The notes beneath the pieces are model-generated. The model did no database searches, was not told where the DNA came from, and was given only the letters and a program-made list of their open reading frames with translations. Made by a program: the position numbers and the translations under genes. A DNA stretch of 64,000 nucleotides. Origin: a virus. Below, in pieces: positions 7,378-64,000 of this stretch (position 1 is the first letter of the stretch; every line of letters begins with the position of its first letter). The stretch is from positions 23,319 through 87,318 of IMG/VR virus record IMGVR_UViG_3300027985_000627; one strand, given 5' to 3'.

Positions 7378-8332
7378 AGACTCGGCTAAATTTCTCTTCA
7401 CCGATGATTACGTGGCTACTTGCAGTGGTAATCTTTTCGTGTATTATCCTAAAGGGTTTGGTGTGAACTGCCTCGTTGATAGCTCCGACATGCTTTCGAC
7501 TGTCAAAGCCATCAGTGAAAACGAAATCAAGATGGAAGTGAAGAAAGATAAACTCCACATTTCATCGAAGACTACCAAAGCCAAACTCAACGCATACATA
7601 GGCGACAACACTATCACCAAATTCATCAACAAGATGGATGTTTCTACTCTGGATTTCGAAGAGCTTCCCAAAGGGTTCAAAACCGGATTCGAACTGTGTT
7701 CGTTTTCGTACATGAAGACGGATTGCACGAATCGGTTTTACAATGTGTTTTGTGACGGCGACTGTATTTTTTCTACGGACACGTATAGGGTCAGTATCTA
7801 CGAACTCCCTGAAGAGGACAAGTCATTGTCCTTCGCGATACCAGGGCCCCAGAGCGAAGTTTTACGCGATTACGACATTGTGGGTTACTGTCTTCTCGAA
7901 AACTGGCTGGTGCTAGAAACCGCTGATGGGGCAATCATAGGAACCACGTTGTCGAAGGCTGAACCTTTCGATTGGGAAAAATCATTTGAGGACTTCGACG
8001 AAGACGAAGCTTCTAACATTCGTATTCCGAAAGAAGTCAAAGACGCTGTGGATTCTATCAGCTTCATGACTGATATCGACGTTAAGAAAGATCAGGTCGT
8101 TGAAGTTGAATTGACTGAAGGGTTTCTCACTCTCAGGATGAAAAAAGAAAGTGGCACTATCGAAAAGACCGTTGAAGTGAAATATAAAGGTCAGGACGTT
8201 AAGTTCTCTATGGTGCCTGAATTCTTTTCCCAAATACTTTCTCATGCGACTGTAGCCAAGATCGGTAAAAGTTCCGCTATTTTCAAATCTCACGGTTTCA
8301 CCCACAATATGCTTCTTCCTATGGAGGAATAA
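7307..8332 (+). CDS. DNA polymerase sliding clamp (DnaN/beta-clamp-like)
   Basis: 341 aa; three-domain pattern, STDTYR motif, LLP terminus; immediately before the polymerase. Confidence 0.7.
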   Translation: MLKSELEKVLLAVKPGLAKRKVDEDSAKFLFTDDYVATCSGNLFVYYPKGFGVNCLVDSSDMLSTVKAISENEIKMEVKKDKLHISSKTTKAKLNAYIGDNTITKFINKMDVSTLDFEELPKGFKTGFELCSFSYMKTDCTNRFYNVFCDGDCIFSTDTYRVSIYELPEEDKSLSFAIPGPQSEVLRDYDIVGYCLLENWLVLETADGAIIGTTLSKAEPFDWEKSFEDFDEDEASNIRIPKEVKDAVDSISFMTDIDVKKDQVVEVELTEGFLTLRMKKESGTIEKTVEVKYKGQDVKFSMVPEFFSQILSHATVAKIGKSSAIFKSHGFTHNMLLPMEE

Positions 8333-10932
8333 TGGCTCTCAGAAAGGGCTTTTTCAAAGAGAAGGCTTCTGGACCCGACTGTGTAAAATGTAAACTCGGT
8401 TCTAAATGCCGTAATCCTAAGCTACCTGTTTACGGTCTTGGCAAACAGAAAGCTTTGATTATCGGTTCTCAGCCGTCTATCATGGACGACAAGTTTGGTA
8501 AACTTGGCAACGGTGAAGCTACGGAGTTTCTGGAAGAAGAACTTGAAAAGTTTGGTTTGGATTTGTACGACGACTTTTGGAAAATCAACGCCGTAAACTG
8601 TGCTACTCCAAAAGGCCGCAAACCGACCAGAAAAGAAATAAACTGTTGTCGTCCATATATCGAAAACATCATTGAAGAACTTAAACCGAACGTCATCATC
8701 CTTCTAGGTGACCAAGCTATAGAATCGCAATTCAACGGACGTTTCAAAGACCTTTCTGTCACACGATGGAGAGGTCTTTGCGTTCCTGAAGTGAAAAATA
8801 ATGCTTGGGTTGTCCCTTTGATGCACCCTGCTCACGTTGTGAAGATGAAGTGGGACGCGCATTTGAAACGGACTTTCAGAACCGATTTGAAGTACGCTTT
8901 GTCCGTATTGAGAAAGAAAGAGAAACCTGAAGTTCTTCCTTATCAAGAACATGTTCACCTTCTCACAACGATGGGAGAAATACGCGGATTGTTCGATTAC
9001 CTGAAGAAAGAAAAACCTTTATCTGCGTATGACTGGGAAACTTCTGCCATAAAACCGTATGATTCCGATCAATTAATATGGTCTTGCGCCATCGCTACTG
9101 AAAGAGGATCCTACGCTTTCCCAATTCACTACCCGTCTGGTTCGTTTTATCCTAAAAAAGGTTCTGATTTTTATTGGGACAAACACCTTGAAGAAGTGGA
9201 AGACCTTGTGAGTTGGTACATCAATGATCCTGAGATGAAAAAGATTGCCCACGGATCAAAGTTTGAAACTACTTGGGGAACTACTGTTCTCGGTAAAGAA
9301 ACTCGTGGAATTGAATGTTGCACAATGACCAGGCAACATGTTCTTGATGCACGAAAGAAATTCTGCGGATTGAAGTTTCAGCTTTTCATTCGTTACGGCA
9401 TCGAAGGGTACGAGAAAGGAACAAAGAAGTATTACCCTGAAGGTCACGGCAACACCAAGAACGAGTTGTTTAAGATGCCGTTGAAAGAACTCCTTACGTA
9501 CAACGGCATTGACGCTTTCGGAACTCTGAAACTCTATCATGACCAAAATGACGAACTCAGAATAGGAACAAAAAGTCCTAAAGAAGACTTGATAAAGTGT
9601 AGCCAACTGTTTCAAGATGGTCTTGAGGCTCTTGGTGAAGCCCAGATGAACGGCATACGAATGGATTTGAAGTTGCTCCATTCTATGAAAGATGATCTTA
9701 CAAAGACCATCGACAATCTGGCTTTGCTTCTGAATGAATCCAGAGAAGCCGTAGAGTTCAAAAAGTTCACTGGTGAAGAATTGAATTTCAATTCTTCAAA
9801 GCACCTTGGAACTTTACTGTTCGATGTAATGAAGTTGGAGCCGACAAAGAAAACATCGTCAGGGTCTAACTCAGTCGATAAAGAAGCACTGACAGCTTTT
9901 GATAGCGAATTTACGCGCAATCTGCTCGAATACCGAAAGTTTTTGAAGATACGTGATACGTACATCGCTCAATTCGTCAACGAGATAGGCGAAGACGGAT
10001 TACTGCATCCTTTCTTTGATCTGCATACAGCCAGAACTGGTCGTTCCAGTAGTTCATCCCCTAACTTCCAGAACATCCCTATCAGAACGGATGAAGGCAA
10101 AGAACTCCGAAAGATTATCATTCCAAGAAAAGGACATAAGATTTCTGAGAATGATTATGGATCAATCGAAGTTCGCATTGCCGCTTGCTACACAAAAGAT
10201 CCTGTTCTCATTTCGTACATCAATGATCCAACTACAGACATGCACCGAGACCAAGCACAAGAACTGTTCTTGCTCAATTCTGAAGAAGTGAACAAGACGC
10301 TTCGGTTTTATGCAAAGAATGGTTGGGTGTTCCCTCAGTTTTACGGTTCATACTACAAAAACTGTGCTTCTGGACTGTGGGAAAACTGTCATAACTTACC
10401 GGTTGGTAAGAACAACGACGGCTTAATACTCACGGAACATTTACGGAAGAAGGGCATAAAGTGTTACGATGATTTTGTTGAACACTGCAAACATCATGAG
10501 AAAGCCTACTGGGACCGTTTCACTGTATTCAAAGAGTGGCAAGAGTCTGTCAAGCAGTTTTATTTGAAGTACGGTTACACCAAATCGTTCTTTGGATTCA
10601 GACGTTCTGGTTATCTTTCACAGAACGACGTAATAAACACACCGATTCAGGGAACAGCTTTCCATTGTCTTCTATGGTCGTTTGCTAGGATCAGCAAGAT
10701 TGCCAAGAAAGAAAAATGGAACTCTAAGCTGATCGGACAGATTCACGACTCCATCATCATTGACTTGGATCCTGCTGAAGAAACACATGTTCTGAAGACG
10801 GTTAACAAAGTCATGACCATCGACATTCGTGAAGACAACGACTGGATCATTGTTCCTCTTGAAGTGGAACCTGAACTTACTGGTGTTGATGAACCTTGGT
10901 ACTACAAGAAAGCAGTACCGTTACCTGCGTAG
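8332..10932 (+). CDS. polA: family A DNA polymerase with N-terminal family-4 UDG-like domain and 3'-5' exonuclease
   Basis: CxxCxL, NAVNC, KPTxxEIxxC, HPA (UDG); DWETS, YNGID (exo); TGRSSS, DYGSIEVR, QIHDS (pol). Confidence 0.93.
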   Translation: MALRKGFFKEKASGPDCVKCKLGSKCRNPKLPVYGLGKQKALIIGSQPSIMDDKFGKLGNGEATEFLEEELEKFGLDLYDDFWKINAVNCATPKGRKPTRKEINCCRPYIENIIEELKPNVIILLGDQAIESQFNGRFKDLSVTRWRGLCVPEVKNNAWVVPLMHPAHVVKMKWDAHLKRTFRTDLKYALSVLRKKEKPEVLPYQEHVHLLTTMGEIRGLFDYLKKEKPLSAYDWETSAIKPYDSDQLIWSCAIATERGSYAFPIHYPSGSFYPKKGSDFYWDKHLEEVEDLVSWYINDPEMKKIAHGSKFETTWGTTVLGKETRGIECCTMTRQHVLDARKKFCGLKFQLFIRYGIEGYEKGTKKYYPEGHGNTKNELFKMPLKELLTYNGIDAFGTLKLYHDQNDELRIGTKSPKEDLIKCSQLFQDGLEALGEAQMNGIRMDLKLLHSMKDDLTKTIDNLALLLNESREAVEFKKFTGEELNFNSSKHLGTLLFDVMKLEPTKKTSSGSNSVDKEALTAFDSEFTRNLLEYRKFLKIRDTYIAQFVNEIGEDGLLHPFFDLHTARTGRSSSSSPNFQNIPIRTDEGKELRKIIIPRKGHKISENDYGSIEVRIAACYTKDPVLISYINDPTTDMHRDQAQELFLLNSEEVNKTLRFYAKNGWVFPQFYGSYYKNCASGLWENCHNLPVGKNNDGLILTEHLRKKGIKCYDDFVEHCKHHEKAYWDRFTVFKEWQESVKQFYLKYGYTKSFFGFRRSGYLSQNDVINTPIQGTAFHCLLWSFARISKIAKKEKWNSKLIGQIHDSIIIDLDPAEETHVLKTVNKVMTIDIREDNDWIIVPLEVEPELTGVDEPWYYKKAVPLPA

Positions 10933-18133: not shown

Positions 18134-18442
18134 ATGGAACGGGTCGTTGAAACTATTATTGGAAAAATTCCTGATTGTGAGCCTAGAATCCTTCAATTTG
18201 AAGTAAAAAAGAATTGTGAAATTCTGTGTGTTCGCGCAACGGATTATACCGACGTGAACAACTGTGTAGCTTTGGATATCGAATGTTCTCCGAATGAAAC
18301 TGAAAAAGTCGGCAAAAGTATTCGATTTGTGAAGCCGAACGAGCAATTTGCCAAAACAGTCAATGATAAGTTCCTGGGTTTAGTCCGATCATGGCAAACC
18401 ATCTATTACGTTTACGAGGTAAGGTGCAAAAATGATTGCTGA
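18134..18442 (+). CDS. hypothetical protein
   Basis: ORF overlapping the thyX start. Confidence 0.55.
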   Translation: MERVVETIIGKIPDCEPRILQFEVKKNCEILCVRATDYTDVNNCVALDIECSPNETEKVGKSIRFVKPNEQFAKTVNDKFLGLVRSWQTIYYVYEVRCKNDC

Positions 18443-20069
18443 TCTGAAAGTTGAATTACTGGCTAAGACTCCGAATATGGAAGAGTTAGCTTTATCGGCA
18501 ATGAAACAGTGCTATTCCAATGGATATGCTGGTGACATATACGTTGGTATGCTTATGTGCAAAACTTTCGATCCTAAAATGCTTCTTTCTGTCATGTCTT
18601 CTGGTCATGTCAGCCCCATCGAACATGGATCGTTTACGTTTGCCATTGCTGGTGTTTCAAGAGCATTGACCCATCAACTTGTTCGGCATCGTCTGGCGTC
18701 GTACTGCTTATCTGGTGATTCTAAAATAGTTTCCTACAACTCCGTAAAGAGTAGGAGTTCCCGTGTTCGCACAATACGAGAATTGTATGAAATGAGTAAA
18801 AACCCCAAAAGGAACGGTCCATTTTCTTTAATACGAATCAGAAGTGTAGATGAAAATGGAATAATAGTTTCAAATAAAATTGTGAAAGTATTTAAAACAG
18901 GGAAAAAACCAGTTTACAAAGTCACCACTGTTAGCGGTAGATGTATAAAGTCTACTAAAGAACACCGATTTAAAACAAAGGAAGGGTTCGTAAGACTGAG
19001 TGAACTATCTGTTGGTGATACTGTAATTGTCAACGGTCTACCTTGTTATAAAAATAAAGAATGGTTAGAAGATCAGTACCTAAACAAGAACAAAACCAGA
19101 GATGAAATCGCTGAATTAGCTGGTGTTAGCAACCCTTGCATTGGAAATTGGGTGAAGAGGTTTAAATTAGTTAAACCTAGATCGGCGTACCCCAATAGAA
19201 AACCGGGACACGGAGTACCGGGAATGTTTTCTGAAAAAGTGAAAAAGAAATTAAGCGAACAAAAGTTAGGAAGCAAGAACCCAGCTTGGCTTGGTGATGG
19301 TGCTTCTGAAAATGCAGGAAGACTACGTGCCCAAAAAATGTATCCTGCTTGTGAGTGTGAAACTTGTGGAGCCAAAACCAGATTTGAACGACACCACATT
19401 GATGGAAACACCAAAAATAACGACCGCAGTAACATTTTAGTTTTATGCTCGGCTTGCCATCGTAGTCACCACAATCTGAATGGCGCTGTTTTAGCCGTAC
19501 ATTCTGATAAAATAGTTTCCATAGAGTACGTGGGAGAAGAAGAAACATACGATTTGGAAGTTGGAAATCCACACAATTACGTAGCAGATGGATTCGTTGT
19601 TCATAATAGCCAACAATCACAACGTTACGTTGACGCTAAAAACGTTAGTTACATCATGCCACCCGAAATCGCCAAAATACCCGAAGCCAGAAGACTATTC
19701 GAATCGTTCATGGACACTTCAGCTTTGGTTTACGAAGACTTGCAGGAAATTCTCATCAAGAACGGTAGAAGAAAAACCGCTAATGAAGACGCCAGATTTG
19801 TTTTGCCGAATGCTTGTGAAACAAGGATCGTGGTCACAATGAATTGCCGATCTTTGATTCACTTCTTTTCTCTTCGTTGCTGCAAACGTGCCCAATGGGA
19901 AATCCAAGCAATGGCCAACCAGATGCTTGAGATTTGCAAAGCGAATGCTCCTACTATTTTCTCTTCGGCTGGGGCTAATTGTGATCTTTTAGGATACTGT
20001 CCTGAAGGAGAACGATCTTGTGGAAAAAAGAAAACTTTAGCAGAATTACAAGGAGTAAAAAATGATTAG
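18432..20069 (+). CDS. thyX: flavin-dependent thymidylate synthase with intein
   Basis: GHxSPIEH, SRxxTHQLVRHR...[intein]...SQQSQRY, EDARFVLP, AQWEI. Confidence 0.93.
   Translation: MIADLKVELLAKTPNMEELALSAMKQCYSNGYAGDIYVGMLMCKTFDPKMLLSVMSSGHVSPIEHGSFTFAIAGVSRALTHQLVRHRLASYCLSGDSKIVSYNSVKSRSSRVRTIRELYEMSKNPKRNGPFSLIRIRSVDENGIIVSNKIVKVFKTGKKPVYKVTTVSGRCIKSTKEHRFKTKEGFVRLSELSVGDTVIVNGLPCYKNKEWLEDQYLNKNKTRDEIAELAGVSNPCIGNWVKRFKLVKPRSAYPNRKPGHGVPGMFSEKVKKKLSEQKLGSKNPAWLGDGASENAGRLRAQKMYPACECETCGAKTRFERHHIDGNTKNNDRSNILVLCSACHRSHHNLNGAVLAVHSDKIVSIEYVGEEETYDLEVGNPHNYVADGFVVHNSQQSQRYVDAKNVSYIMPPEIAKIPEARRLFESFMDTSALVYEDLQEILIKNGRRKTANEDARFVLPNACETRIVVTMNCRSLIHFFSLRCCKRAQWEIQAMANQMLEICKANAPTIFSSAGANCDLLGYCPEGERSCGKKKTLAELQGVKND
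18705..19607 (+). mobile_element. 301-aa intein with HTH, NUMOD3-like and HNH homing endonuclease domains
   Basis: Starts CLSGDS; block B TKEHRF; ends YDLEV...FVVHN|S; CETCG...HHIDG...N...LCSACH. Confidence 0.92.
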
Positions 20070-29694: not shown

Positions 29695-30660
29695 CTATTT
29701 CCCCAATTTGTAAGTTGACCAGAAAATATCTGGATATCGGAATAAAGTAGTTTCCGTAGTGGCACAATCAGGCGACCACGATTTCCACTCATCCATATTG
29801 TAAAACAATCCGGCAGTTCTGAAAAGACTTCCAGCCCAATTGTTAGAAGTTGGAATATGGAAATCGCTACCAGCAGACCATATGCGCTGTTGCAACCATC
29901 CTAGTGGGCCCCACAGCTTTTTATAAGGAAACCTCTTAGGCCAGTTTTGATCCTTGCAATAGTACCAATATTTTCGTATTACCGGGTAGAGTTTTTCAGC
30001 CAGTATCTCGTGCATCATTGCCGCTCTAAGTGTTGGCGTAATGTAAAAACTCATGTACGACATACAGTAGTTATTCCTATAAGCCTCAGTCCATAAATCA
30101 CCTTCTTCAACAAACCAGAACCTCTTTGTTGAATTCTGAAGATGAGTCACGAACCCGTCACCCTCAGTGGTTAGATTGGCTAGCATACCGAGATAAGCGT
30201 AGACCATCATACGTCCAAGTCTTCCCCATGCTCCCCAATTACCTCTGGAACCCCAATTTCTAGCATTTATGATAGCATCACAAGCGGGTAGGTACGTGTT
30301 CACGGCCCAAACCGACACATCACATCCGCACATGGCGGCAGCTTCAAATATGCGCTGACCTTTGTAAACCAAAGTTAAAGCACCCTCTAAATTACCGTAA
30401 CCAGTATTAGAACTACACCAAGAACTAATAGCCTGATTAGCACGACCAGTATATCCAAGACCAAGCACTTCAGCTTGTGCATATACAAGTGGAGCGGCCG
30501 TTCCATTTTCTAGTGGTAATTTTTCTTGTGTAGATACTTCAGTATTATCGTAATTTGGAGTAATTGTAACAACTCCCATTTGACTCCAATGACCATTTAC
30601 AGAGTATTCCATCTCGTAGTTCGAAAGAAATAAATTTAAGGAATCTAGTTGATTTTTCAC
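29695..30660 (-). CDS. putative polysaccharide lyase (alginate-lyase-like alpha/alpha fold)
   Basis: NWGAWG and E..R....Y..F patterns; Trp/Tyr-rich helical protein after the tail fibres. Confidence 0.5.
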   Translation of the reverse strand: MKNQLDSLNLFLSNYEMEYSVNGHWSQMGVVTITPNYDNTEVSTQEKLPLENGTAAPLVYAQAEVLGLGYTGRANQAISSWCSSNTGYGNLEGALTLVYKGQRIFEAAAMCGCDVSVWAVNTYLPACDAIINARNWGSRGNWGAWGRLGRMMVYAYLGMLANLTTEGDGFVTHLQNSTKRFWFVEEGDLWTEAYRNNYCMSYMSFYITPTLRAAMMHEILAEKLYPVIRKYWYYCKDQNWPKRFPYKKLWGPLGWLQQRIWSAGSDFHIPTSNNWAGSLFRTAGLFYNMDEWKSWSPDCATTETTLFRYPDIFWSTYKLGK

Positions 30661-39700: not shown

Positions 39701-41135
39701 TACGGAGTTCTTCCATAGATATGGTGCCTTTTGAAATCATCTGTTCGACAGCGTACAAGGAGCCTTTTATTTTATCATTGGAAAGACCAAGAGCGGAACC
39801 TGCGGTTATCAAAGCCTGGTAAATTTTGTGGACTTCTTGTCCTTCCAAAGCAGTACCCATAGCCGCAGCGGAAATGCTTTTGTAACCATCAGCCAGAGAA
39901 TAAAAATTCAAACTCAATTTTTCCGATGTATCACGTAGCCACGCAAGCTCTTTCGAAGCCCCTTGTGCGCTGCCAGCAATACCTTCAAAAGAAAGTTTCA
40001 ATTGTTGGTAATCGGCTCCAGCTTCAAAGATGCTTCTAATCATCGAACCGATACCGTAACCAACAAGAGCGTAGTACAGGTTCCTGATCGTGAATACAAC
40101 CGAGTTCAAATCCCTGGCGTGTTGTAAAGCGGATTTAGAACCAGAGGCATGAGAACTGTTGAGGCGCTTCTGGGCTTGTTCCAAAAGTCTAGCCTCTTTA
40201 GCCCCTTGTTTAGCAGCTTCAGCCAAATCTTTTTCCGCTTGCTGCAATTTTCTGGCAGAAGATATCGAAGCAGCCTCTTCACCACGTTGGGCTTTGTACG
40301 CCGCAACGACTTCCCGCACCTTTTCCTTCAACTTATTGAAAGCATCGGAAAGCTCTTTCTTTGAAACGACACCTGCCTTCTCCAGACGTTTAATCTCTCG
40401 ATATGCGTCAGTGTACCCCTTCAACTGTGCCTTAAGCTCAGACGTTGAGGTAAGACCCAAGGTACCCATACTCTGAGTCTTAGACTGCGAAGAAGTGTTT
40501 CCCAATTCAGAGTACAAACGCTTGGATGTAGCAATGAACTCGTTCAACTTCTTTTCGGCCGCAGTGATCGGACCAGTCAAAGAGTCTTTGTTTCTTTCAC
40601 CAACAGAGCGAAGTTCAGAATATAAATTTTTAACGTTAGCAAGGTATTCTCTGGTGAAGTCTTTCAATTCACCAGTATTACCTTGGCCCTTCATAACGGT
40701 CGTCAATTCAGCGAAGGCTTTTTTCAAATTGGAAATATCGGATATAATAGCTTGAGACGTTCTGGTCTTGAAATTAGCCGATACTTTAGAAAAATCCAAA
40801 GCCTCGGAAGCTTCCATGGAAGCTTTTCTCAAAGACTTTATATAAGAAATGAGTTTAGCAAGATCAGCACCGCCGACAAGTTTCTTACCGTCAACCTCAA
40901 GATTGGCAAGCTTTCGGACAATGATTTCAAGCTCTTTGAAAGCAGTGATGGTTTTTTGAACTTCAGAAACCTTGGAGAAACGATTCATCAAAGACTGGAA
41001 CCGCTTCTCCAAGGCCAGGGTAGTTTTGGAAACTTTGTCGTCAACGTCGTTAAACTTGCGAGTAACGGTGTCAAGACCGTCAATGGCTTTTTGACCTTGA
41101 AAGTCTACGCTAACGCCGAGTTTTATGAGATCCAT
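33702..41135 (-). CDS. tape measure protein (2477 aa)
   Basis: QMISKGTISMEELRRQLG tape-measure motif; long Ala/Glu helical body; FAxGG...GE..PE C-terminal motif. Confidence 0.93.
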   Translation of the reverse strand: MDLIKLGVSVDFQGQKAIDGLDTVTRKFNDVDDKVSKTTLALEKRFQSLMNRFSKVSEVQKTITAFKELEIIVRKLANLEVDGKKLVGGADLAKLISYIKSLRKASMEASEALDFSKVSANFKTRTSQAIISDISNLKKAFAELTTVMKGQGNTGELKDFTREYLANVKNLYSELRSVGERNKDSLTGPITAAEKKLNEFIATSKRLYSELGNTSSQSKTQSMGTLGLTSTSELKAQLKGYTDAYREIKRLEKAGVVSKKELSDAFNKLKEKVREVVAAYKAQRGEEAASISSARKLQQAEKDLAEAAKQGAKEARLLEQAQKRLNSSHASGSKSALQHARDLNSVVFTIRNLYYALVGYGIGSMIRSIFEAGADYQQLKLSFEGIAGSAQGASKELAWLRDTSEKLSLNFYSLADGYKSISAAAMGTALEGQEVHKIYQALITAGSALGLSNDKIKGSLYAVEQMISKGTISMEELRRQLGNQLPGAFQIAAQAMGATTTELMRMVKEGELATEEFIPKFARALEDRFAGTAEKAVGLAVRAIDRFQMAWMDLKIAMSENGFLDAAVNFINELTTQFQSPDFIEAVGRFGEEIGKTITALASGITAATDFANTVISIYNSLPPIIRELGLIGAIMLGPKGIAIAGVIAAVAYKATNSYEVMSYSIEYGNTLLDKQREALSGLSVGSKEYEEAQKGVAALEQNIQDRWEKKVGLIRTNEELLKEEQELIKKQMAAKYDQLNLMGQESATGKALQKDIAQLASNYNDLGDMMLAAANPDMGKTISHNIEESLDPIGKLSDAIDRSKDSALANAAAQRKMDNLLKDIPKTAKDSAQKIEELNAKYAKHLESLLSIANNEELSLETRTRAQADYQQVLENQKNEIDKITKADELAANAALAAAAAAEKKSDAYDHYNDTIKAAVDATLADISGNDFAKTLANIDKEMTNMLYNAEQKAKSAGESVEGLVDQIKQLRELKVEAALSDTYQEVFGTKPGGGEEKSILAMYDELYKVAKKNGSDTIQLENWKKTEILKIQDKIVEAKIKYGELSFEDTEDLVNKEIVKYEEGGSKEREAAQKVLEYLLENSAAIYATRASMWDGIAAKAQAAGNAEVAAFSQAKAEAERQNSLEEKTKTGSSSEAFKAQLALEYDLYKSADTKKRELAVETASFIKSATDDMVSGISGSFGDMIRGFADGSASLEDLWQNMLSRMLDMVASFVEQMIAEFLKAQVIGPMMESFIGGGIDNLTGSFGSGSNSATNIATSIGGDALDSYLGSAIESSMGSFFSSAGSEATIAIAETATTTLDTEIAGMIGASLDAAIPAATGVGASLMSGLATAGIGAVIGLGLTALTGGFDTKKTETQTGTGYKLGVVDGMMYGSGSEYYTVEEKSMFGENTSHEIRTVSLDPEAIQSIEDAYQTNVEALKEAGTLFDFDTDLSNWDFPEFDVTDEQLEDYFKNLGNAMAYFKLDSEGLLPVVTDLQKDSETLLETLNRLQSAYVKANETTFYYGYSLETLAGVTQETLDAMRSSAEETASTLEPYDTAMSNAMSQAASMMEGIEGASVNASVSMDTITSATQNIASETDFAAQGMSESWSDAYGTFDTATEAVDSLSTTLDTTTEALESVGVVLDVTDEQLKTFALADYASKLIEAVGGDEEWDAAWERISNRTKESWELLDSAVIYYTANASNAIENLEGIIGDSGITVENFWDKFEEALNSYMDPEAFAYWNQAAKYADSLAEVNDQLEENRRTWQKWSESLEQRKLAAEGREDEADLLDLLTSHEWELVEAREAGASAAQLAYLAEVQEIELKKLAADKEEERLEALASANKRYYDAVEDETSLFAMEQANNVKELYDTTWKYGQEVADALEAAMKAEKYAYVSAKNAELQATKEAFEQDMRYRNLVLEGKEEEAEAAQILVEQAKELQEAYDNGLSQSEITELQNVQLREMAKYWSDIQDSLDDAADSADSLADRLQDALDDALEAAIDQVDYMLDGANAAKDAADELRDRWYAVADTVQGLLEDLLLGDSSNLTADQKTTTAKSWYEETYAKAMSGDIDAAESVADYAQAYLEAAKSSTTDPFEYSKTFGRVTSQLASLEVLGDLEGARQDTLSQLLEIQISLLELQKELLEEGGTQTELLAQNATAIGIVGELIGSQTTTTVDVAGTSLTEAQALRSRVGAGVGYQMATYNLLQSGITFDDEIWNAMQSDSQTGLGYLSGINGHTASLISVTGDVVGAVNDLAEQLQAETQLSALQSQYQALQQQAISSIQNSTQGTMVQGIANSGAGYQMANNIFQNAYGINWWNSASASERSSWLDWWQQSYGEGSGYVDWSWVLNQFNSSNRLDSNTNALYDAYLEAYQDYLDLREEYGFANGGIMTSRGPINLYSSGGIANTPQVAIYGEGSIPEAYVPLPDGHTIPVTLSGEFSSEGLQAEMREMRKDMNDRLYLLRKDTQKLADKISRWDDEGLPKERTTQ

Positions 41136-41499
41136 GACGTCTCGCTTTTGACTTTTGATTTCCCAACGTACCGGCCTTCGCTGGTTTGTTGAGGAAACTT
41201 AGATACACATCCTCTATTTGCCGTATAACGTCCAACTCAAGTTGTGTCAATTGCCTCTTTCGGACAATCATCCAGTTTTTAATTTCAGTCCATGTTAAAG
41301 GCGGATGAATCGCTCCCATACCAAGACTTACTGGAATTCTGGCTTTACTCAAATCCCAAAAAAGCTGGAGCATGTATTCTCCCCACAAAGTGGCTTCCGG
41401 TTCGTTCGCAAGTTCTTTTGGAAGTTTCTTTGTGGTTTTGAATACCTGCTCCAGCTGCTCTCTCACGGTGGAGTTACCGACGACTTTCGATAACTCCAT
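41110..41499 (-). CDS. tail assembly chaperone, frameshift extension (gpT part of gpGT)
   Basis: F.DL...R......P.TW.EI..W pattern; -1 frame is open from the slippery site at 41568. Confidence 0.8.
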   Translation of the reverse strand: MELSKVVGNSTVREQLEQVFKTTKKLPKELANEPEATLWGEYMLQLFWDLSKARIPVSLGMGAIHPPLTWTEIKNWMIVRKRQLTQLELDVIRQIEDVYLSFLNKPAKAGTLGNQKSKARRHGSHKTRR

Positions 41500-41528
41500 C
41501 CGTGATTTTAGGAGTGCGAGAAGCTCCG

Positions 41529-41981
41529 CTACTTGTTCTTCATGAAGTTCGCGGTGTTCTGCAAAAAATCATCACACTGCTCCCTGATCCAAGGAACCCT
41601 GGTGAGAAGCATGACAGCGTTGTCGGGAGTGAACTCCAGAGGGTTCTCGCCATCAATAGACACGGACGGGGACCATCCGTAAATGACGCTGGCGATCAGC
41701 TTGATCGAATCCTGCTTCAGTTCGGCCGCAGTCAGAGTGGCCTGGCGTTTACCCTTGGCTTTCTGAATACGACGGTCAGTGATGGCATTATCCATCTCCC
41801 TGTAAACGTCAGATTCAGGACCGTACATATCAATGTACAGAGTGGGTTCATTGGTTTCCTTGTCACGGAACTCGACATCAGAAACGGGGTCGCACAGAAC
41901 AAGCCGAGAGCCTTTAGCAGAACCAGCAATGATGTCACGACCGTCCAGAAGATTAATGAGCTTCGACATGGTACCCTCCAT
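41529..41981 (-). CDS. tail assembly chaperone (gpG)
   Basis: Between tail tube and TMP; G.ES..Y, W, PWIREQ...F. Confidence 0.85.
   Translation of the reverse strand: MEGTMSKLINLLDGRDIIAGSAKGSRLVLCDPVSDVEFRDKETNEPTLYIDMYGPESDVYREMDNAITDRRIQKAKGKRQATLTAAELKQDSIKLIASVIYGWSPSVSIDGENPLEFTPDNAVMLLTRVPWIREQCDDFLQNTANFMKNK
41562..41568 (-). other. programmed -1 ribosomal frameshift site T-TTT-TTG
   Basis: -1 frame reads AEHRELHEEQVAELLALLKSRMELSK..., fusing in frame to 41499..41110. Confidence 0.75.
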
Positions 41982-53677: not shown

Positions 53678-54671
53678 ATGACAGATGAAGAATTGATGCG
53701 GGAAGCTTTGTCGCTTTGCGGAAAAAACGGAGCACATCTTTTATATCTCACAAGGTTTGGTTCAGAACTCTACGGAACGAACACGATCAATTCCGACACG
53801 GACGCGAAAGGAGTGTTCCTCCCTAACCTCGATGATTTGATCTTGGGAAAAGCTCCGAAGAACTTAATCTACAAAACATCGGATAACGGTGAAAGAAACA
53901 CCAAGGACGATGTGGACATAAACCTTTGGAGTTTGCAGTATTGGTTGGAGTTACTCCAGAAAGGTGACACCAATGCCATCGACTTGCTTTTCTCTTACAA
54001 CAGTCCAAGCATGATTTACTGTGTCAACGGTTTGGAATACATGATGGAAGAAAACTACGGAAAATTCTACAGCCCGAAAAATCTTTCAGCGTACACGGGT
54101 TACATCATCGGACAAGCTAAGAAATACGGAGTCAAAGGTTCTAGGCTTGGTGTTATTAAAAGAGTCTACGAATGGTTGGACGAAAACATAACCGTTGGTA
54201 GACTGGAACACTTCATGGATGCAATCCTGAAGGAATGCGGAGAACCTTCGTATTGCTTTGAAAAAGAAGTGAACAACCAACGGTCGGTAATCTTATGCGG
54301 CAAAGTCCACCAAGGCACAATCCAGATGGACGAGTTTAGGGATAGGATTCAAAAGGATTATGAAGGTTACGGAGAAAGAGCAAGATTGGCGGAACAGAAT
54401 GAAGGCATAGACTGGAAAGCTTTAAGTCATGCGGTGAGGTGTATCCACCAAATGACTATGCTCTTGAAAAATGGCAGAATAGTGTTTCCGCTGAAAACGT
54501 CGGAATACTTAAAGCATATCAAACAAGGCAAAAGTCTCTTGGAAAGACGTTGAAAGGATCATGATTGATGGGTTGGAGCAGGTGCAAAGGCTTCAACAAG
54601 AATATCCGAAGGAAAAGGACCAGTTCGACACCAAATTCAGAGACAGTTTTATTTTATCTTGGTATAAGTAA
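53678..54671 (+). CDS. DNA pol beta-superfamily nucleotidyltransferase, apparently frameshifted near the C-terminus (first frame stops at 54553)
   Basis: FGSxLYGT...SDxD, DWKALSHAVR; continuation VSWKDVE...FRDSFILSWYK in the +1 frame after AAAA 54530-54533. Confidence 0.8.
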
Positions 54672-55362: not shown

Positions 55363-56037
55363 ATGGAAAAGCCGCCGTTAGGATTGAAACCGAGGTATGT
55401 TCACGACGATCAAAGGATAACAGAAATCCTGGAAGCTATGAACAGGTATGTGACAAGCAATCAAAGAATGAAGATTCCACATGAATGGACAAAGGAACTG
55501 GGAGACTTGCTCATGAACAGGGATGTAAAGGAGGAGCAAAAGGAAGAAAAGGTGAACATACTTGGAGTGCGTTGCCAGACATGTAAACACGCGGATTTGG
55601 ACGTTGAAGGTGATAGGAAGTTTTCTTGGTGTGGTTGTAAGTTAATGAAAACAACGGACGGAGACCGTGGAGGAAACACGTTGGCTTACGCACAAGGTGT
55701 TGGTAGGACTGGAGGAAGAGTGAGGGTAAACAAAGACTTCGGTTGCATCCAGTACGAAGAAGAACAAGGCGTAAAGGTAGAGGAGTTTCATAACTGCGTA
55801 GTGAAGTTCGGGAAAAGTCCGAAAATGTATTACTATAAAACCTTGGACGATGATATTGAACAAGGAGAGTACGTCCTGGTGCAAACTGTTAACGGTCCTA
55901 CCTGCGCTATGTTCGTAAGGTATCTGGATACGGAGTCTGTGGTGGATGAAAGAAGCATATCAAAGGCAACGAAGTGGTTGATTAGTTCGGTTCAATGTCT
56001 GATTGACGATCTGCCAGTAAGACTTAAAAACCTTTAA
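55363..56037 (+). CDS. multi-domain hypothetical protein
   Basis: GGAGG RBS; KPPLGLxP N-domain, CxxCKH...C...FGC..YE, SH3-like C-domain. Confidence 0.68.
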   Translation: MEKPPLGLKPRYVHDDQRITEILEAMNRYVTSNQRMKIPHEWTKELGDLLMNRDVKEEQKEEKVNILGVRCQTCKHADLDVEGDRKFSWCGCKLMKTTDGDRGGNTLAYAQGVGRTGGRVRVNKDFGCIQYEEEQGVKVEEFHNCVVKFGKSPKMYYYKTLDDDIEQGEYVLVQTVNGPTCAMFVRYLDTESVVDERSISKATKWLISSVQCLIDDLPVRLKNL

Positions 56038-56057
56038 TCTCCACATAACGTAAGAAT

Positions 56058-56094
56058 GAAAAGGTCCTGGTTAACGCTGGGTCTTTTCTTTTGG
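56058..56094 (+). terminator. probable terminator
   Basis: Imperfect GAAAAGGTCC/GGGTCTTTTC stem followed by a T-tract. Confidence 0.45.
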
Positions 56095-56112
56095 GTTACG
56101 TATGCGTTGATG

Positions 56113-56183
56113 AAAATTATTAAGGAGCGGATTGGGTACACAGGTTTTATTTTCCATACAAAAAATTATTAAGGATCGGATTG
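56113..56183. repeat. 22-bp direct repeat pair
   Basis: AAAATTATTAAGGA(G/T)CGGATTG at 56113-56134 and 56162-56183. Confidence 0.85.
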
Positions 56184-56301
56184 AGCAGAGGAATCCTAAA
56201 ATCCACGAAAAAAATTGTGAGGGGGTACGGCACACACACTCAATAGACAAAACGCAAGATAAAACAAGGGGGTCTATATTAGATTGTCTATAGATTGAGA
56301 C

Positions 56302-56338
56302 AAAAGAAAAAGCGCGCATCGTGCAGACTGCGCGCTTT
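56302..56338 (-). terminator. intrinsic terminator with alternating-GC stem
   Basis: AAAGCGCGCA-N10-TGCGCGCTTT; U-tract on the - strand. Confidence 0.8.
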
Positions 56339-56352
56339 GAGTGAACGTGAAG

Positions 56353-56817
56353 CTAAATTTTTCTGAGCGAGAGAACTTGAGCAGAAACAAGAGTCTTTGA
56401 CTTGTTGAGCGAAAGCTTAATCTTGTCGCTCTCTTCGCGCTTCAAATGCGAGATATGCTGAAGAACTCTCTCGCGCGAGCATTCACACAACTGCGCGATA
56501 TCTTCGACGCTTTGAACGTCGTGTGCAATCGCGCTTTCGATCAAATAGCTTTGAGTGAGAAAACGCGCATTCGTGAAGTATTTGACATATTCGCGTTCAG
56601 TTCTTCTCACTCTCACATTCGACGCTTCTCGCTGTTCGATTTCTTCGCGCTTCAAAACTTCTTCACGTTCGAACGCTTCAGCAAGTTCGAGCGTAGAAAG
56701 ATTGCTTGAATTGATAGAAAGAAAAAGATTCAAAATTGCAAGCGTTTGAAAGCTCGAAAAATCAATCGCGCTGTTTTCTTCAATAATTTCGACGTTCTTC
56801 TGATTGTTCTTTTGCAT
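56353..56817 (-). CDS. winged-HTH protein lacking Gly, Pro and Trp
   Basis: TQSYLIE...SVEDIAQLCECSRERVLQHISHLK, paralogous to 3092 and 63046; AGAGAG-type RBS. Confidence 0.75.
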   Translation of the reverse strand: MQKNNQKNVEIIEENSAIDFSSFQTLAILNLFLSINSSNLSTLELAEAFEREEVLKREEIEQREASNVRVRRTEREYVKYFTNARFLTQSYLIESAIAHDVQSVEDIAQLCECSRERVLQHISHLKREESDKIKLSLNKSKTLVSAQVLSLRKI

Positions 56818-56870
56818 GACGTTTCTCTCTTTTAGTTGATTGTTCGTTGAAATAGTTGACTATTTTACGT

Positions 56871-57035
56871 TTACTCGAAAAATCTTGCGCGCTTTTCACG
56901 AATGCGCTTCAATTCTTCTTCAAATGCTCTTTGCTCTTTTTCATCAAATTCATTGTCGATTAATGAAAACTGAGCAAGAAAGCGTCTTTTGTCATAATAC
57001 GCTTTGAACGTGTTTTCTGTCTGCGTCTTTTTCAT
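56871..57035 (-). CDS. 54-aa charged protein lacking Gly, Pro and Trp
   Basis: GAGGGGG RBS; MKKTQTENTFKAYYDKRRF... Confidence 0.62.
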   Translation of the reverse strand: MKKTQTENTFKAYYDKRRFLAQFSLIDNEFDEKEQRAFEEELKRIREKRARFFE

Positions 57036-57059
57036 CTTTTCCCCCTCGTTTTTGTCTGA

Positions 57060-57087
57060 ATAGTACGCTTGCAAAAAATCTTTTCAA
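57060..57087 (-). promoter_or_regulatory. sigma70-like promoter for the GG-free operon
   Basis: TTGAAA-N16-TACTAT, about 12 nt before the RBS. Confidence 0.6.
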
Positions 57088-57117
57088 TCCCCGCACGAAA
57101 AAATATTTTAAGCGTCG

Positions 57118-57308
57118 TTCGTGTTACTATTCGTTCAATTCGTGTTACTCAAAATCGTATGCAATTCGTAACACGTTTTTTCAATTCGTTACATGTATGT
57201 ACATACATGACACAAAACACGAATTCGTGTTATTTGCTCAAAACGTAACACGAATTTTGAAAAAGTATCGTATGCAATTCGTGCTACGAATTCGACGAGG
57301 CGTGTTAC
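57118..57308. repeat. array of AATTCGTGTTAC-like boxes and palindromes
   Basis: About 8 copies in both orientations; perfect palindromes at 57192-57209 and 57216-57231. Confidence 0.85.
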
Positions 57309-57312
57309 TGCG

Positions 57313-58350
57313 AGGCAGGCAGGCACGAATACATGCAGACTACACAATACGTTCGCACACAGCACGGATCGGACAACTGTCCAGATGAAACTCTATGTTG
57401 CCTGGTCCTGCGGCAGGTACGCGCATAGAGGGAGGTCTGTGTCGCCTGAAATTCAGCCTTGCTCGGCACCTGCCTACCGATCGTTCTACATAGTCAACGT
57501 GAATCATCTATCGCAATCTCTGTTTCCTTTCGTTACCGATTAGCCTGACGTTAACCTTCAATGCCTGTACAGTCTGATTCTGTTTGTTGAATCATCATTG
57601 CCTAAACCTAATAGGTGGATCCTAGGATCCACCGGATAAACCTAACTTAAAACCGTAGCCTGCCTGTATGTGTGCAAATCAAAGGTTGTGATCCGTGGTT
57701 TACTATTCTGTTTTGTTTAGCCGACGATTCTATATGCCTACCTGCCTTTGTGTGATTTTATCTGTCGGATTTACGCCGGCAGAATTTTATTCGGTTTTTT
57801 CGAGATTCCCTCTTGCGTTTGAAAATACAAAATTCTGCCAGACCTTTGTTTGGATGAATTTTGTTCTGTTTTGTTTAATCCACGGTTTTCCTGCCTGTAT
57901 GTGTGTATTTAGAAAAGTTCAATCGGATCAACGAAAGACGAATTCCAGCCTTTCGTAAAAATAAATAACCGTAATAAAATCAACGAATGGTTGATTTTCA
58001 GCCTGCCTGTGTGTCTTTCTGTTTGTCTTCTTTTTAATTTTAAATGCCTTCGGATAATGTTTTTCTTAAGGAAATCACGAAAGTTCAGGTATGTAAAAGC
58101 AGGGAAGTAATCAAGGGTAATGTAAACCGAGGCAGGTAGGCATATAGAACCACGGACATGCACGGCAGAATATTATTCTTTCACCCCTTCTGGGATTTCT
58201 CAAAATTTGTTCTGGCTTTTTAACAAGGATAAGAATTTTATTCTGCCGTATGCTGAAACACAGAACGCGAGGCAGGCAGGATTATAGGTCCGTACGCTGA
58301 AAATACTTAGCCGTAGCCCCTGTGGCTGCACCATAGACACGTAGGCAGAA
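57313..58350. repeat. dispersed CCTGCCT/GGCAG repeats and inverted repeats
   Basis: About 9 copies; 20-bp perfect IR 57728-57747/58130-58149; 20-bp palindrome 57614-57633. Confidence 0.8.
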
Positions 58351-58969
58351 AGGATTGATTGTATCCGTAGGTTAAGGATTAATGGTTAGGTACACAGGTT
58401 ATTATTTTCACAGTGAGGGCCCTAGGTGTCGCCTAAACGCAGGAACCCTTTGTTTCACAAGGGTTCGTGTATATCCACAGGACCGAGAAAATATTTCGTC
58501 CATGCGCGAGGGGAGGCAAATCTCCACCCCTTTAACCAGCATATATCTCCTCCCTTTGTTTACGCACATTCTCTTATCTACCAACACACTCCGATGAATT
58601 CAATTTATCAACCAAATACACATCCTTATCTTTGTTTCTTAACCATATCTTAATTTCTTCCATACGTAATCAATCGTAGTCTTCTTTGTTCTTTCTTCTC
58701 CTTTCTCATTTTTTCTTTATCCGTCGGTTTACTCCTTATTTCTTTCTTCTCCTCTTTTCTTACTTTTTCCTTAGATTTTCTTATTCCATCGGTTCCTCCT
58801 ATAGTTATAGCGTCGTTCTTGTTTTTCTCGTTTTTTACTGGAACTTATCCTCGGCAATAAATCCATGAATTTCCCTTCATTATCCACTTTGTAGTATTCT
58901 CATTCCTTGCTATTCGTGCGACAATGTATTTAGTCGAAACCGATCATTGAAAACTGATTATCCGAGATA

Positions 58970-59810
58970 AAACTTCTCTTTGTTGGGAGTTTAAATTTGA
59001 TTGCGGCGGATTCTGATTATCCTTCATTTGTTTTTGTGTCCTTCATTCTCTCTTGATTTTCTGCTATCGAAGTCTTCTCCGTGGATTCGGAGGTGGGTAA
59101 TTCTTTAGTAGAGAATATCGGAGCGGATCTCGTAGTAGGCAGACAGAACTGCTGAAGACTGCTTGGAATGCGTGTCAAATCTTCTGGCCAGGATTGCTTG
59201 TGTTCTGGACTTCTTGAAACCGATAAGGATCTCTGATCTGGGAAAGGATTTTCAAGAAGGATGCAGGAGCCAGAGGAATACTAGGTTCTACTCGGACGGC
59301 GCGCTGAGAAGTAGCTGAGGTCCAGGATCCACGTAGAGGGTTTAGGGAACATGAATCGGAGACTGCAATCAAATGCCTTGATGACGAACAATCAGGGTCT
59401 CGGTATTCTTTGACAATTGAGGCTCCGATCGGATCGGAGTGGGAAGAACATTTTGTTTGAATCTGGCTGTCAATTCTAAATAAGAAGGCAAGTCCAGTTT
59501 CTTGTGTTCTTCTGCTTTTTAGGACGCGCATCGCACATGCTTTTGTTCTCCAGGGCTTGTTTTGTCAAAATGAGGCGGAGAGAGCAATGACGGTTATAAT
59601 TCGCGTTTTAAAAAGAAATCTTGTTTTTTCTTGGCTTGAAATTCCCGGACCTTCTTCAGCAAAGACTTACCAGGGCAACTTCGCTAATTGCTGGAATGAT
59701 TTCTAATAGAACCTAGGAATGATTTCAGGGATGGCGGATCTTTGCTGTCGTGGGAATTTCAAGCATTTTATCAAGGAGTCGGGGTTTTCTTGATTCTTTG
59801 ATAAGATAAC
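58970..59810 (+). ncRNA. candidate large structured RNA
   Basis: Many nested helices with G-U pairs on the + strand; no credible ORF. Confidence 0.55.
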
Positions 59811-59856
59811 TATTTAGGATCTTTACTTTTCTTTTCACTTCAACGGGAGGTTTTCT

Positions 59857-60042
59857 GTGTCGAAGAACGATCAGAAATTTATGGGAAATTGGGAGGTTGT
59901 TTTTTCTGTGCCTCCTGGTAAAAAATCTGTTTCTAGGAAAAAGAAATTTCACGAGGAAATCGTTGTGCGCCGTGGAGAACAGATTATTTCTCGTAGGCGG
60001 CGTTCGAAGATGGGTCGGTGGATCCAAACGAAGGAGGTTTAG
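59857..60042 (+). CDS. small basic hypothetical protein
   Basis: GGGAGG RBS before GTG. Confidence 0.5.
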   Translation: MSKNDQKFMGNWEVVFSVPPGKKSVSRKKKFHEEIVVRRGEQIISRRRRSKMGRWIQTKEV

Positions 60043-60141
60043 GATGAGATTTACTGGGTATTTTAATCATACGGAACTTTATCTTTCTTTAGAGTTGAAG
60101 AGATTCAACTGGAACTTGCTTTGCGCATTTGGACATTAATT

Positions 60142-60351
60142 ATGAAGGCTATTATTACAAGGCAAAACAAAGACGGATCCTACGACGATTGTGGGATGAA
60201 CAATCGTTTCCTTACTGGTGAATACAAAACTTTGAAAGGATTGTTTCGTTACGGTGTTCCTAAACATAAAGGCGTTTATCGCGTGGAAGTGTTTTACGGA
60301 GACAGCATCTACGGAGAACCGTTTTGTGTTAAATATATAGAACGGTTTTAA
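60142..60351 (+). CDS. hypothetical protein
   Basis: ORF in the early gene run. Confidence 0.55.
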   Translation: MKAIITRQNKDGSYDDCGMNNRFLTGEYKTLKGLFRYGVPKHKGVYRVEVFYGDSIYGEPFCVKYIERF

Positions 60352-60936: not shown

Positions 60937-61368
60937 ATGAAAAACCAGAAATTAGGTTTGTATCAAACGTTCAAATGGCACCGTCGTATGTGGAGATGGG
61001 TATCCAAAGATGCGTGTAGGTCAAAAGCAGATTGGCCTGGTTGGATTAAACGTTTGCCGGGATTAGCTTGTCCCGGTTACATAGTGATTGGAAATTTGAA
61101 AAAAACAATACAATACGGTTGTTTTTTCTGCCAATACGATTTCGAAAATACGGAATATGATTGTGCGGAATGTCCAGTTGATTGGAAAACAACTTCTGCT
61201 ACTAAAAAATCATTTTCTTGTGAAGGACCGGGTTCTTTTTACACCATTTGGAAAGATTTTTTCTCGCCAAGTAGTATTGTTTCTTACAAACATATATTGG
61301 AAGAAAAGGCTATGAAGATAGCTTGTATGGCTCCGAAAAAATGGAACTACGGCAAGTATAGCTGGTAA
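60937..61368 (+). CDS. Cys/Trp-rich hypothetical protein
   Basis: AAGGAGG RBS; HRRMW.W, CFFCQY...C..CP..W. Confidence 0.68.
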   Translation: MKNQKLGLYQTFKWHRRMWRWVSKDACRSKADWPGWIKRLPGLACPGYIVIGNLKKTIQYGCFFCQYDFENTEYDCAECPVDWKTTSATKKSFSCEGPGSFYTIWKDFFSPSSIVSYKHILEEKAMKIACMAPKKWNYGKYSW

Positions 61369-61468
61369 AGTCTACGGACAGATGAAGGAGGGCCGAGGCT
61401 TTGTGCTTCGGCCCTCCCCTTGTGTTCATAGACACATTGGAATAACTTGTAATTGTAAGGAGGCTATC

Positions 61469-63727: not shown

Positions 63728-64000
63728 ATGAAATTCAACATTTTGAACAGGTTTTCGGACGAGGTCCAGTTTACGGCTGAAATCGACTGCGCCGAGGACG
63801 CTCTAAAGTCGTCCAAGGTCGGATTGGCGGTAAAATGGGCCATCAAAAATAGAACCAATCTTAGCGGGGCTGATCTACGCTGGGCTGATCTCATAGAGGC
63901 CGATCTCAGCGGGGTCAATCTCAGCGGTACCGATCTCCGCTGGGCTGATCTCATCGGGGCTGATCTCCGATGGACCGATCTCAACGGGGCCAATCTCAGC
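63728..64000 (+). CDS. pentapeptide-repeat protein (runs off the window end)
   Basis: GGAG RBS; TNLSG ADLRW ADLIE ADLSG VNLSG TDLRW repeats. Confidence 0.85.
   Translation, partial: MKFNILNRFSDEVQFTAEIDCAEDALKSSKVGLAVKWAIKNRTNLSGADLRWADLIEADLSGVNLSGTDLRWADLIGADLRWTDLNGANLS

Follow-up and report, generated by a model that had tools for sequence, protein, structure and literature searches.

What is the function of the structured segment that closes a long gap without open reading frames (ORFs), directly ahead of the small early genes of a metagenomic phage? The gap lies in a 64,000-nucleotide (nt) stretch of DNA, here called the window, which corresponds to bases 23319-87318 of the 87,318-base IMG/VR virus record IMGVR_UViG_3300027985_000627; positions are window positions unless another record is named. 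A sequence-only reading had proposed that positions 58970-59810 encode a ~840-nt highly structured non-coding RNA heading the early operon. In agreement with the proposed location, we found that the stretch directly before the rightward operon of small ORFs is free of ORFs and has an unusually stable, strand-biased fold, but only ~350-390 nt of the interval proved exceptional, with a core domain at 59473-59821 on the plus strand (Table 1). The best reading of this domain, to which we give a little less than an even chance, is that it forms a structured 5′ leader for the early operon.

Sliding 300-nt z-scores cut long hairpins, and we used instead an RNALfold scan with support vector machine z-scores (span 400) covering all 87 kb of the record on both strands. 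The core domain ranked first among the 1163 plus-strand local structures with z <= -3 found genome-wide, and the second rank was taken by 59431-59823 (z -7.44). Over 59473-59821 the minus strand reached only z -3.7. When 59500-59920 was compared with shuffled sequences, the plus strand had a z of -6.43 and none of 100 shuffles was as good, against a z of -2.58 for the minus strand. The predicted fold of the core domain has 125 pairs, 19 of them G-U, and a 10-bp closing helix (59473-82/59811-20) encloses a small hairpin together with hairpins A, B and C. Hairpin B, predicted to hold ~45 bp with internal loops, is built from a perfect 13-bp base, an 8-bp CAGCAAAG/CUUUGCUG helix and an apex made of two GGAAUGAUUUC copies. 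The terminal hairpin of ~19 bp that had been noticed from the letters folds as 19 bp at 59765-59807 (hairpin C); aligned as DNA, its arms show 14 matches (14/21 identical), 6 G.T mismatches, no A.C mismatch and 1 transversion.

Taken as a whole, the 841 nt fold to -293 kcal/mol on the plus strand (z -5.46, 0/20 shuffles as good) and to -193 kcal/mol on the minus strand (z -1.68). The comparison of minimum free energy (MFE) z-scores on both strands, which the sequence-only reading had suggested as a check, came out in favour of the 3′ part of the plus strand and not of the 5′ half (58970-59472), which folds like shuffled sequence (plus strand, z -1.23, 10/100 shuffles as good; minus strand, z -0.46, 33/100) and where the RNALfold minimum is z ~-3.4. 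Every helix that had been listed with coordinates does pair as claimed, and GAGAC/GTCTC, CTCCGATC/GATCGGAG and TTGACA/TGTCAA are all seen in the sequence and are paired in the full-length MFE structure. By our own rough estimate, however, perfect helices within 400 nt are expected ~0.3 times per 840 nt at 10 bp and ~0.005 times at 13 bp, so that the 9-11-bp helices of the 5′ half are at chance level. The ~360-nt multibranch domain supposed to be closed by 59168-76/59523-31 lies in a region that folds like shuffles. The full-length MFE structure keeps this closing helix, while local folds assign 59523-31 to the base of hairpin A, and the multibranch domain is unsupported. An ornate 840-nt non-coding RNA or ribozyme is therefore not what the folds depict, as the predicted architecture is one of long simple hairpins.

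A leader fits the observations best because no terminator separates the domain from the first ribosome-binding site, which it adjoins on the same strand, because RNA parameters distinguish the two strands, and because the G.T pattern in the hairpin arms is one-sided. The structured domain is separated by ~40 nt from the Shine-Dalgarno sequence and the GTG start of ORF1, the first gene of the operon. On the plus strand of 58970-59860 we found no terminator-like sites, and hairpin C is AU- and GU-rich without a U-run after it (the next letters are AACUAUUUAGG). An intrinsic terminator or attenuator was ruled out, since the plus strand offers no GC-rich stem followed by a U-run; with no canonical terminator after hairpin C, a transcript would continue into the operon. 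ORF1 is an orphan with no Pfam or PHROG match, and the rightward run of small ORFs carries strong Shine-Dalgarno sequences.

We infer both the transcription of the element and every step of the mechanism proposed here. The last ~350 nt of the control region would be transcribed on the plus strand as the 5′ leader of the rightward small early ORFs. In the leader RNA the long hairpins A (102 nt), B (131 nt) and C (43 nt) would form, and the 10-bp closing helix may join them. Most likely the leader would act in cis to control the early transcript. RNase III-type processing and 5′-end stabilisation would use hairpins of this kind, 19 to ~45 bp long, and hairpins B and C, as predicted, have the size of an RNase III leader hairpin (~20 bp or more of double-stranded RNA). 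The basic ORF1 product could also use the hairpins as its RNA site in an antitermination or autoregulatory loop, and the antitermination leader that the sequence-only reading had named is one possible mechanism. A boxA-like UGCUUUUUA with 1 mismatch, picked out by eye and at chance level, lies at the base of hairpin A, and no boxB-type loop was recognised. Further into the early genes, a GC-rich perfect 13-bp hairpin separates two ORFs (61348-61458). As the database protein that corresponds to the 221-aa ORF downstream of it has 192 aa, the start of this ORF is probably a later ATG preceded by GGAGG.

The position of the element was compared with that of structures in distant relatives. Four related records were fetched whole or nearly so, and all four carry ORF-free gaps of 1-2.5 kb. 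Three of them (G001, G002 and G003), whose terminases are 46-47% identical to that of the present phage, were scanned genome-wide by RNALfold; only these three enter the count of analogues, to the exclusion of the unscanned G004 and of L043, a partial locus of 21.8 kb in which nothing outstanding lies upstream of the terminase. According to BLASTP, the shared interval extends from a TerS-like gene beside the terminase to a DUF2786/DUF7168 gene, which in the present phage requires joining the contig end to its start. In all three relatives scanned whole, one of the top three structures on the early-sense strand falls in this interval, and the rank-1 structure of G003 (68447-68518) lies there as well. 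The interval makes up ~10-13% of each genome and the joint chance of these ranks is roughly estimated at <1%, with the caveat that hairpins should in any case be more frequent in non-coding DNA. The G002 element can be aligned with that of G003, including a perfectly conserved 25-nt polypyrimidine run, and RNAalifold kept 64 pairs between them, 14 via double changes, which is a weak signal from two sequences only. Long polypyrimidine runs are uncommon genome-wide on the early-sense strand, and they adjoin the element in the present phage, G002 and G003. Behind the G003 element lie a CU tract and a hairpin that, with its T-run, resembles a terminator; the present element has no such sequel, which weighs against equating the two.

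Table 1. Features of the gap, the structured domain and the positional analogues (MFE in kcal/mol; the last three rows refer to the related records, with the early-sense strand listed first)
Feature	Position	Strand	Description	MFE and z	Other strand
ORF-free gap	56840-59856		~3 kb; leftward genes (56353-56817, 56871-57074) on one side, rightward operon on the other		
Operator-like repeat array	~57100-57310				
CCTGCCT/AGGCAGG cluster	57313-58280	both orientations	10/16 of the genome's CCTGCCT occurrences		
G-poor pyrimidine-rich tract	58540-58970	+	essentially unstructured; A.21, C.25, G.09, T.44		
Helix	58970-77/58985-92		8 bp, 2 G-U		
Helix	59056-66/59106-16		11 bp, 2 G-U		
Helix	59168-76/59523-31		9 bp, 1 G-U		
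Helix	59180-88/59269-77		9 bp, 1 G-U		
Helix	59210-19/59250-59		perfect 10 bp		
Helix (base of hairpin B)	59634-46/59752-64		perfect 13 bp		
Core domain	59473-59821	+	~350 nt	MFE -128.9, z -8.04	
Hairpin A	59515-59616	+	102 nt, irregular, 14-bp base	MFE -33.5, z -3.51, 0/200 shuffles as good	MFE -19.9, z -1.70, 14/200 shuffles as good
Hairpin B	59634-59764	+	131 nt, extended	MFE -55.1, z -5.89	MFE -41.4, z -4.75
Hairpin C	59765-59807	+	19 bp, 5-nt loop, 5 G-U	MFE -20.5, z -7.36	MFE -5.8, z -3.32
CU-rich linker	59821-59841	+			
Shine-Dalgarno sequence	59845-59850	+	GGGAGG		
Start codon of ORF1	59857	+	GTG		
ORF1 of rightward operon	59857-60042	+	61 aa, 17/61 K or R including RRRR		
Analogue in G003	69826-70161	early-sense	rank 3	z -7.98	z -5.63
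Analogue in G002 (L023)	54350-54644	early-sense	rank 2	z -9.69	z -7.83
Analogue in G001 (L032)	~30091-30458	early-sense	rank 1	z -11.4	z -11.7

The remark of the sequence-only reading that the element could not be assigned to a known class was confirmed by covariance-model searches. At the gathering thresholds of the 4227 models of Rfam 15, the 64-kb window gave 0 matches, as did six relatives' loci, and a search of 56000-60200 with E up to 5 returned noise only (SNORA44, 18.9 bits vs 55; Atu_C9, 14.7 vs 40). A retron msr-msd was ruled out, as PF00078 finds nothing in the 87-kb genome and was positive in control genomes. The DNA of the element had no blastn match in 50,697 phage records and no blastn similarity to the relatives' gaps, and an nhmmer profile of the G002/G003 alignment did not match it. 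A covariance model of hairpins B and C, run over 27 sources (442,502 bases), recovered only the query and its own reverse strand, and no second copy of the element was found. Exact-pattern scans of IMG/VR gave 0 stretches for the 11+11-nt base of hairpin B and 8 for a doubled GGAATGATTTC, all of them unrelated tandem repeats on inspection. The sequencing runs that contain the element are both labelled hydrothermal-vent metagenome, and their contigs show no variant letters, indels or joints over it. Literature searches gave no description of this element.

The prevalence of G-U pairs among the mismatches had been taken as a signature of selection on RNA. For each hairpin, the 5′ arm was aligned with the reverse-complemented 3′ arm under plain DNA scoring, which is blind to wobble, and the excess on the plus strand was indeed there: transition mismatches in hairpins A-C were G.T in 18 cases and A.C in 4 (p 0.004 vs 50:50), those in B and C alone were 10 vs 0, and adding two 5′ helices gave G.T in 23/27 (p 0.02). 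The inference of selection stood less well, and this is the first of several results that weigh against a leader RNA. Measured against the 0.657 expected from the composition of this G+T-rich strand, the excess has a p of only 0.08, and it could arise without selection from C-to-T bias on a displaced, often single-stranded plus strand. DNA energy parameters make both strands similarly significant (z -4.63 and -4.20), so that the inverted-repeat content is real at the DNA level and the asymmetry under RNA parameters comes from G-U pairs alone. The elements of G001 and G002 are near-perfect inverted-repeat clusters that rank first or second in their genomes on both strands. The relatives' elements are about as stable on both strands and almost purely Watson-Crick (G-U in 4/109 and 5/101 pairs), and by blastn, nhmmer and covariance model they share no detectable sequence or structure with the present element. 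No homologue or sequence variant from which covariation could be read turned up in the collections searched. The Shine-Dalgarno sequence and start codon are unpaired to the structured domain in the centroid fold of 59500-59920; as the predicted fold does not sequester the former, it gives no sign of a simple translational switch. No sigma-70-like promoter was found near the element on the plus strand of the gap, and none of the 13 sites scoring 10/12 genome-wide falls in the gap, although the host may not use the consensus. Finally, the element was present in two DNA runs only, likely the source sample filed twice, and in no RNA run, a result that is silent on expression. As modelled, present support for an RNA role is purely thermodynamic.

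Part of this evidence speaks for the main rival, which we consider rather unlikely, namely that the hairpins are inverted repeats acting as DNA within a T5-like untranslated control region. Such a region might be an origin, with iteron-like CCTGCCT repeats, a G-poor unwinding tract and single-strand initiation hairpins, or else a packaging, genome-end or injection-pause region like the T5 untranslated repeats. In addition to the equal performance of both strands under DNA parameters and the strand symmetry of the relatives' analogues, the content of the gap argues for it. From left to right, the gap holds the operator-like array, the CCTGCCT cluster, the G-poor pyrimidine tract and the interval of the sequence-only reading. 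The cluster, which looks like an iteron-like or protein-binding array of DNA-level repeats, includes a perfect 20-bp inverted repeat (57728-47/58130-49, 382 nt apart) and three copies of CCTGCCTGT(A/G)TGTG. RSF1010 oriV-like origins combine iterons, an AT-rich unwinding tract and strand-specific initiation hairpins, and the order of cluster, G-poor tract and hairpins in the gap would fit such a layout, but the spacing of the motifs is irregular, they occur in both orientations, and a link to a Rep protein or a primase was not found. The surroundings are T5-like too, with a leftward late operon from the terminase beside small early ORFs and long untranslated repeats, and two independent assemblies break <=~75 nt apart 4 kb downstream, as they would near repeats or ends. 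On the other hand, the arms of hairpin C are identical at only two thirds of their positions and all of their transition mismatches are G.T on the plus strand, RNA parameters strongly favour that strand, and the element adjoins a ribosome-binding site on the same strand. A T5-like cluster of DnaA boxes is also missing: with TTATCCACA and <=1 mismatch, the gap holds 2 unpaired one-mismatch sites (58471 and 58880), and the whole window has 21 matches vs 13.9 +/- 3.7 expected.

We give little credence to the view that the domain has no specific function and consists of decayed inverted repeats or recombination scars in fast-evolving non-coding DNA, its plus-strand bias following from a G+T-rich composition. 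The hypervariability of the region between relatives, the chance-level 5′ half and the composition-adjusted G.T test would all agree with it, and structures with z <= -5 cover 8.5% of the genome's plus-strand positions. Decay would not be expected to leave the first-ranked structure of the strand, energies that 0/100 or 0/200 shuffles reach, a perfect 13-bp helix as rare as estimated above, or top-ranked structures in the same interval of all three relatives. Least likely of all, and in our view quite improbable, is a large non-coding RNA that stands alone and acts in trans, either as a new class comparable with GOLLD, ROOL or OLE or as an anti-defence decoy, its place upstream of the operon being incidental: the top-ranked strand-specific structure of the genome, a predicted closing helix that would delimit a discrete 349-nt domain, the terminator-like hairpin behind the G003 analogue and the occurrence of GOLLD and ROOL in phages would suit it, but Rfam has no match even at E up to 5, no terminator follows hairpin C, the hairpins are long and nearly continuous instead of junction-rich and ornate, and neither a second copy nor a homologue in 27 related loci was recovered.

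The absence of a credible ORF, as had been claimed from the letters, holds under any stop-codon reading of the gap. TAA, TAG and TGA each occur 9-29 times per frame in all six frames of 56840-59856; a hidden ORF was thereby ruled out, and with all three stop codons so frequent, recoding rescues none. Within the gap, the G-poor tract folds to -17.8 kcal/mol for a 300-nt window, and two of the three 24-nt plus-strand windows with >=23 pyrimidines found genome-wide lie at 58680-58772. A rightward transcript of the tract would offer Rho an ideal, rut-like loading stretch; at the DNA level the tract is polypurine/polypyrimidine and easily unwound.

The gene make-up of the genome is that of a large virulent siphovirus. 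The IMG/VR record is classed as linear without end repeats, at a CheckV completeness of 91%. Replication and repair genes include a PolA-type polymerase with a uracil-DNA-glycosylase (UDG) domain, gp32-like and RecA/UvsX-like proteins and an ATP-dependent ligase, next to ThyX with an intein and SNF2/DEAD helicases. The leftward late block contains a 2477-aa ORF of tape-measure size, a portal-sized ORF and a 611-aa ORF that we take for the large terminase on the grounds of size, genomic position and strong relatives among other viral contigs. The closest relatives of this putative terminase were 55% identical among IMG/VR sequences, 54% among JGI metagenomes and 46% among GTDB genomes; tblastn gave no match for it in the 50,697 phage records, where PolA reached at most 24-28% identity. 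To judge from these protein comparisons, the lineage is without a cultured relative. The flanking early proteins are orphans even against sets of 5.8 billion and 1.84 billion proteins. A 128-aa protein near the gap has one weak IMG/VR relative, whose locus is without similarity to the gap, and an exhaustive comparison with 1.84 billion representatives returned the protein itself and 2 weak partial matches; the 154-aa leftward protein had no relatives in these searches, and the 221-aa early protein matched only itself.

Other features of the genome were noticed along the way. The ThyX gene (18432-20069) is interrupted by an intein-splicing domain, and the family-A DNA polymerase (8332-10932) has an N-terminal domain of the uracil-DNA-glycosylase superfamily. 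A gene for an RlaP-type (RNA-repair-pathway) nucleotidyltransferase lies between the terminase block and the gap (53678-54553), and no tRNA or tmRNA genes were found in the window. The most stable local structure of the genome is at 41250-41650 (peak 41353-41513 on the minus strand; z -9.83 minus, -7.41 plus). It covers the junction between ORFs 41529-41981 and 41110-41499, both small and leftward, which closely precedes the 2477-aa tape-measure ORF; the programmed frameshift of tail chaperones usually occurs at this place. At the contig end (~63926-64000), an independent Logan assembly of the two DNA runs stops <=~75 nt from the end of the IMG/VR contig, a break that is probably repeat-driven or near a physical end, and an ORF near this end has G002 homologues with many internal repeats.

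Overall, the domain is a moderately interesting candidate, from predicted folds, for a structured leader in a poorly sampled phage lineage. If it is RNA, the first genes of a phage lineage without cultured members would be under the control of a leader of unusual size and stability, and this would be a regulatory RNA conserved by position and shape and not by sequence, of a kind that comparative searches miss by design. A bolder version, which we regard as a long shot, is that of a new class: a ~350-nt multi-hairpin RNA heading the host-takeover operon in a previously unsampled lineage of large virulent siphoviruses, its position kept while its sequence is replaced. Were this true, the kept position and replaced sequence would point to a cis-acting RNA hub controlling entry into the early programme, for example by RNA-based antitermination through an arginine-rich first-gene product, or as a decoy against host RNA-guided or dsRNA-sensing defence. 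If the hairpins are instead a DNA element, they would mark an origin, a genome end or an injection-control region, which would be useful for annotating such metagenomic phages.

Among known systems, the large non-coding RNAs GOLLD, ROOL, OLE and HEARO resemble the present element in being large and ORF-free and, for GOLLD and ROOL, in their phage or mobile-element setting; the present element differs in its simpler hairpins, in having no Rfam match and in lacking a homologue family. GOLLD and ROOL are covered by PMC12286853. The closest documented case for hairpins acting as DNA is that of the untranslated repeat regions of T5. T5 is described as having three conserved untranslated repeat regions and an injection stop signal (Davison 2020, bioRxiv 10.1101/866236), and these regions are DNA elements, with a conserved order of repeats and paired DnaA boxes, inside the long terminal repeat. 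The two phages share a kilobase-scale ORF-free region with direct and inverted repeats and palindromes among small early genes, and a reversed late operon. They differ in that the present gap has no cluster of DnaA boxes and in that 59473-59821 is strand-biased, as DNA palindromes need not be.

For a structured leader, the nearest comparisons are with cis-acting RNAs at the head of operons. The antitermination stem-loops of the HK022 put and EAR types, ~70-120 nt long, lie between the promoter and the first genes of the operon; the present element is likewise a stem-loop element ahead of an operon's first genes, but those RNAs have defined conserved features, whereas it matches no curated model. 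Early leaders processed by RNase III include the T7 R0.3 site ahead of gene 0.3 and the lambda N leader, in which nutL is combined with an RNase III-sensitive stem. The present element is longer, with ~350 nt and three hairpins against one ~60-nt hairpin or a ~220-nt leader, it has no identified boxA or boxB and no sequence relation to them, and its cleavage and role in antitermination are inferred. It is like them in that the first early gene, a small one, has long imperfect hairpins directly before its ribosome-binding site, and, as with lambda N, the product of that gene is small and arginine-rich.

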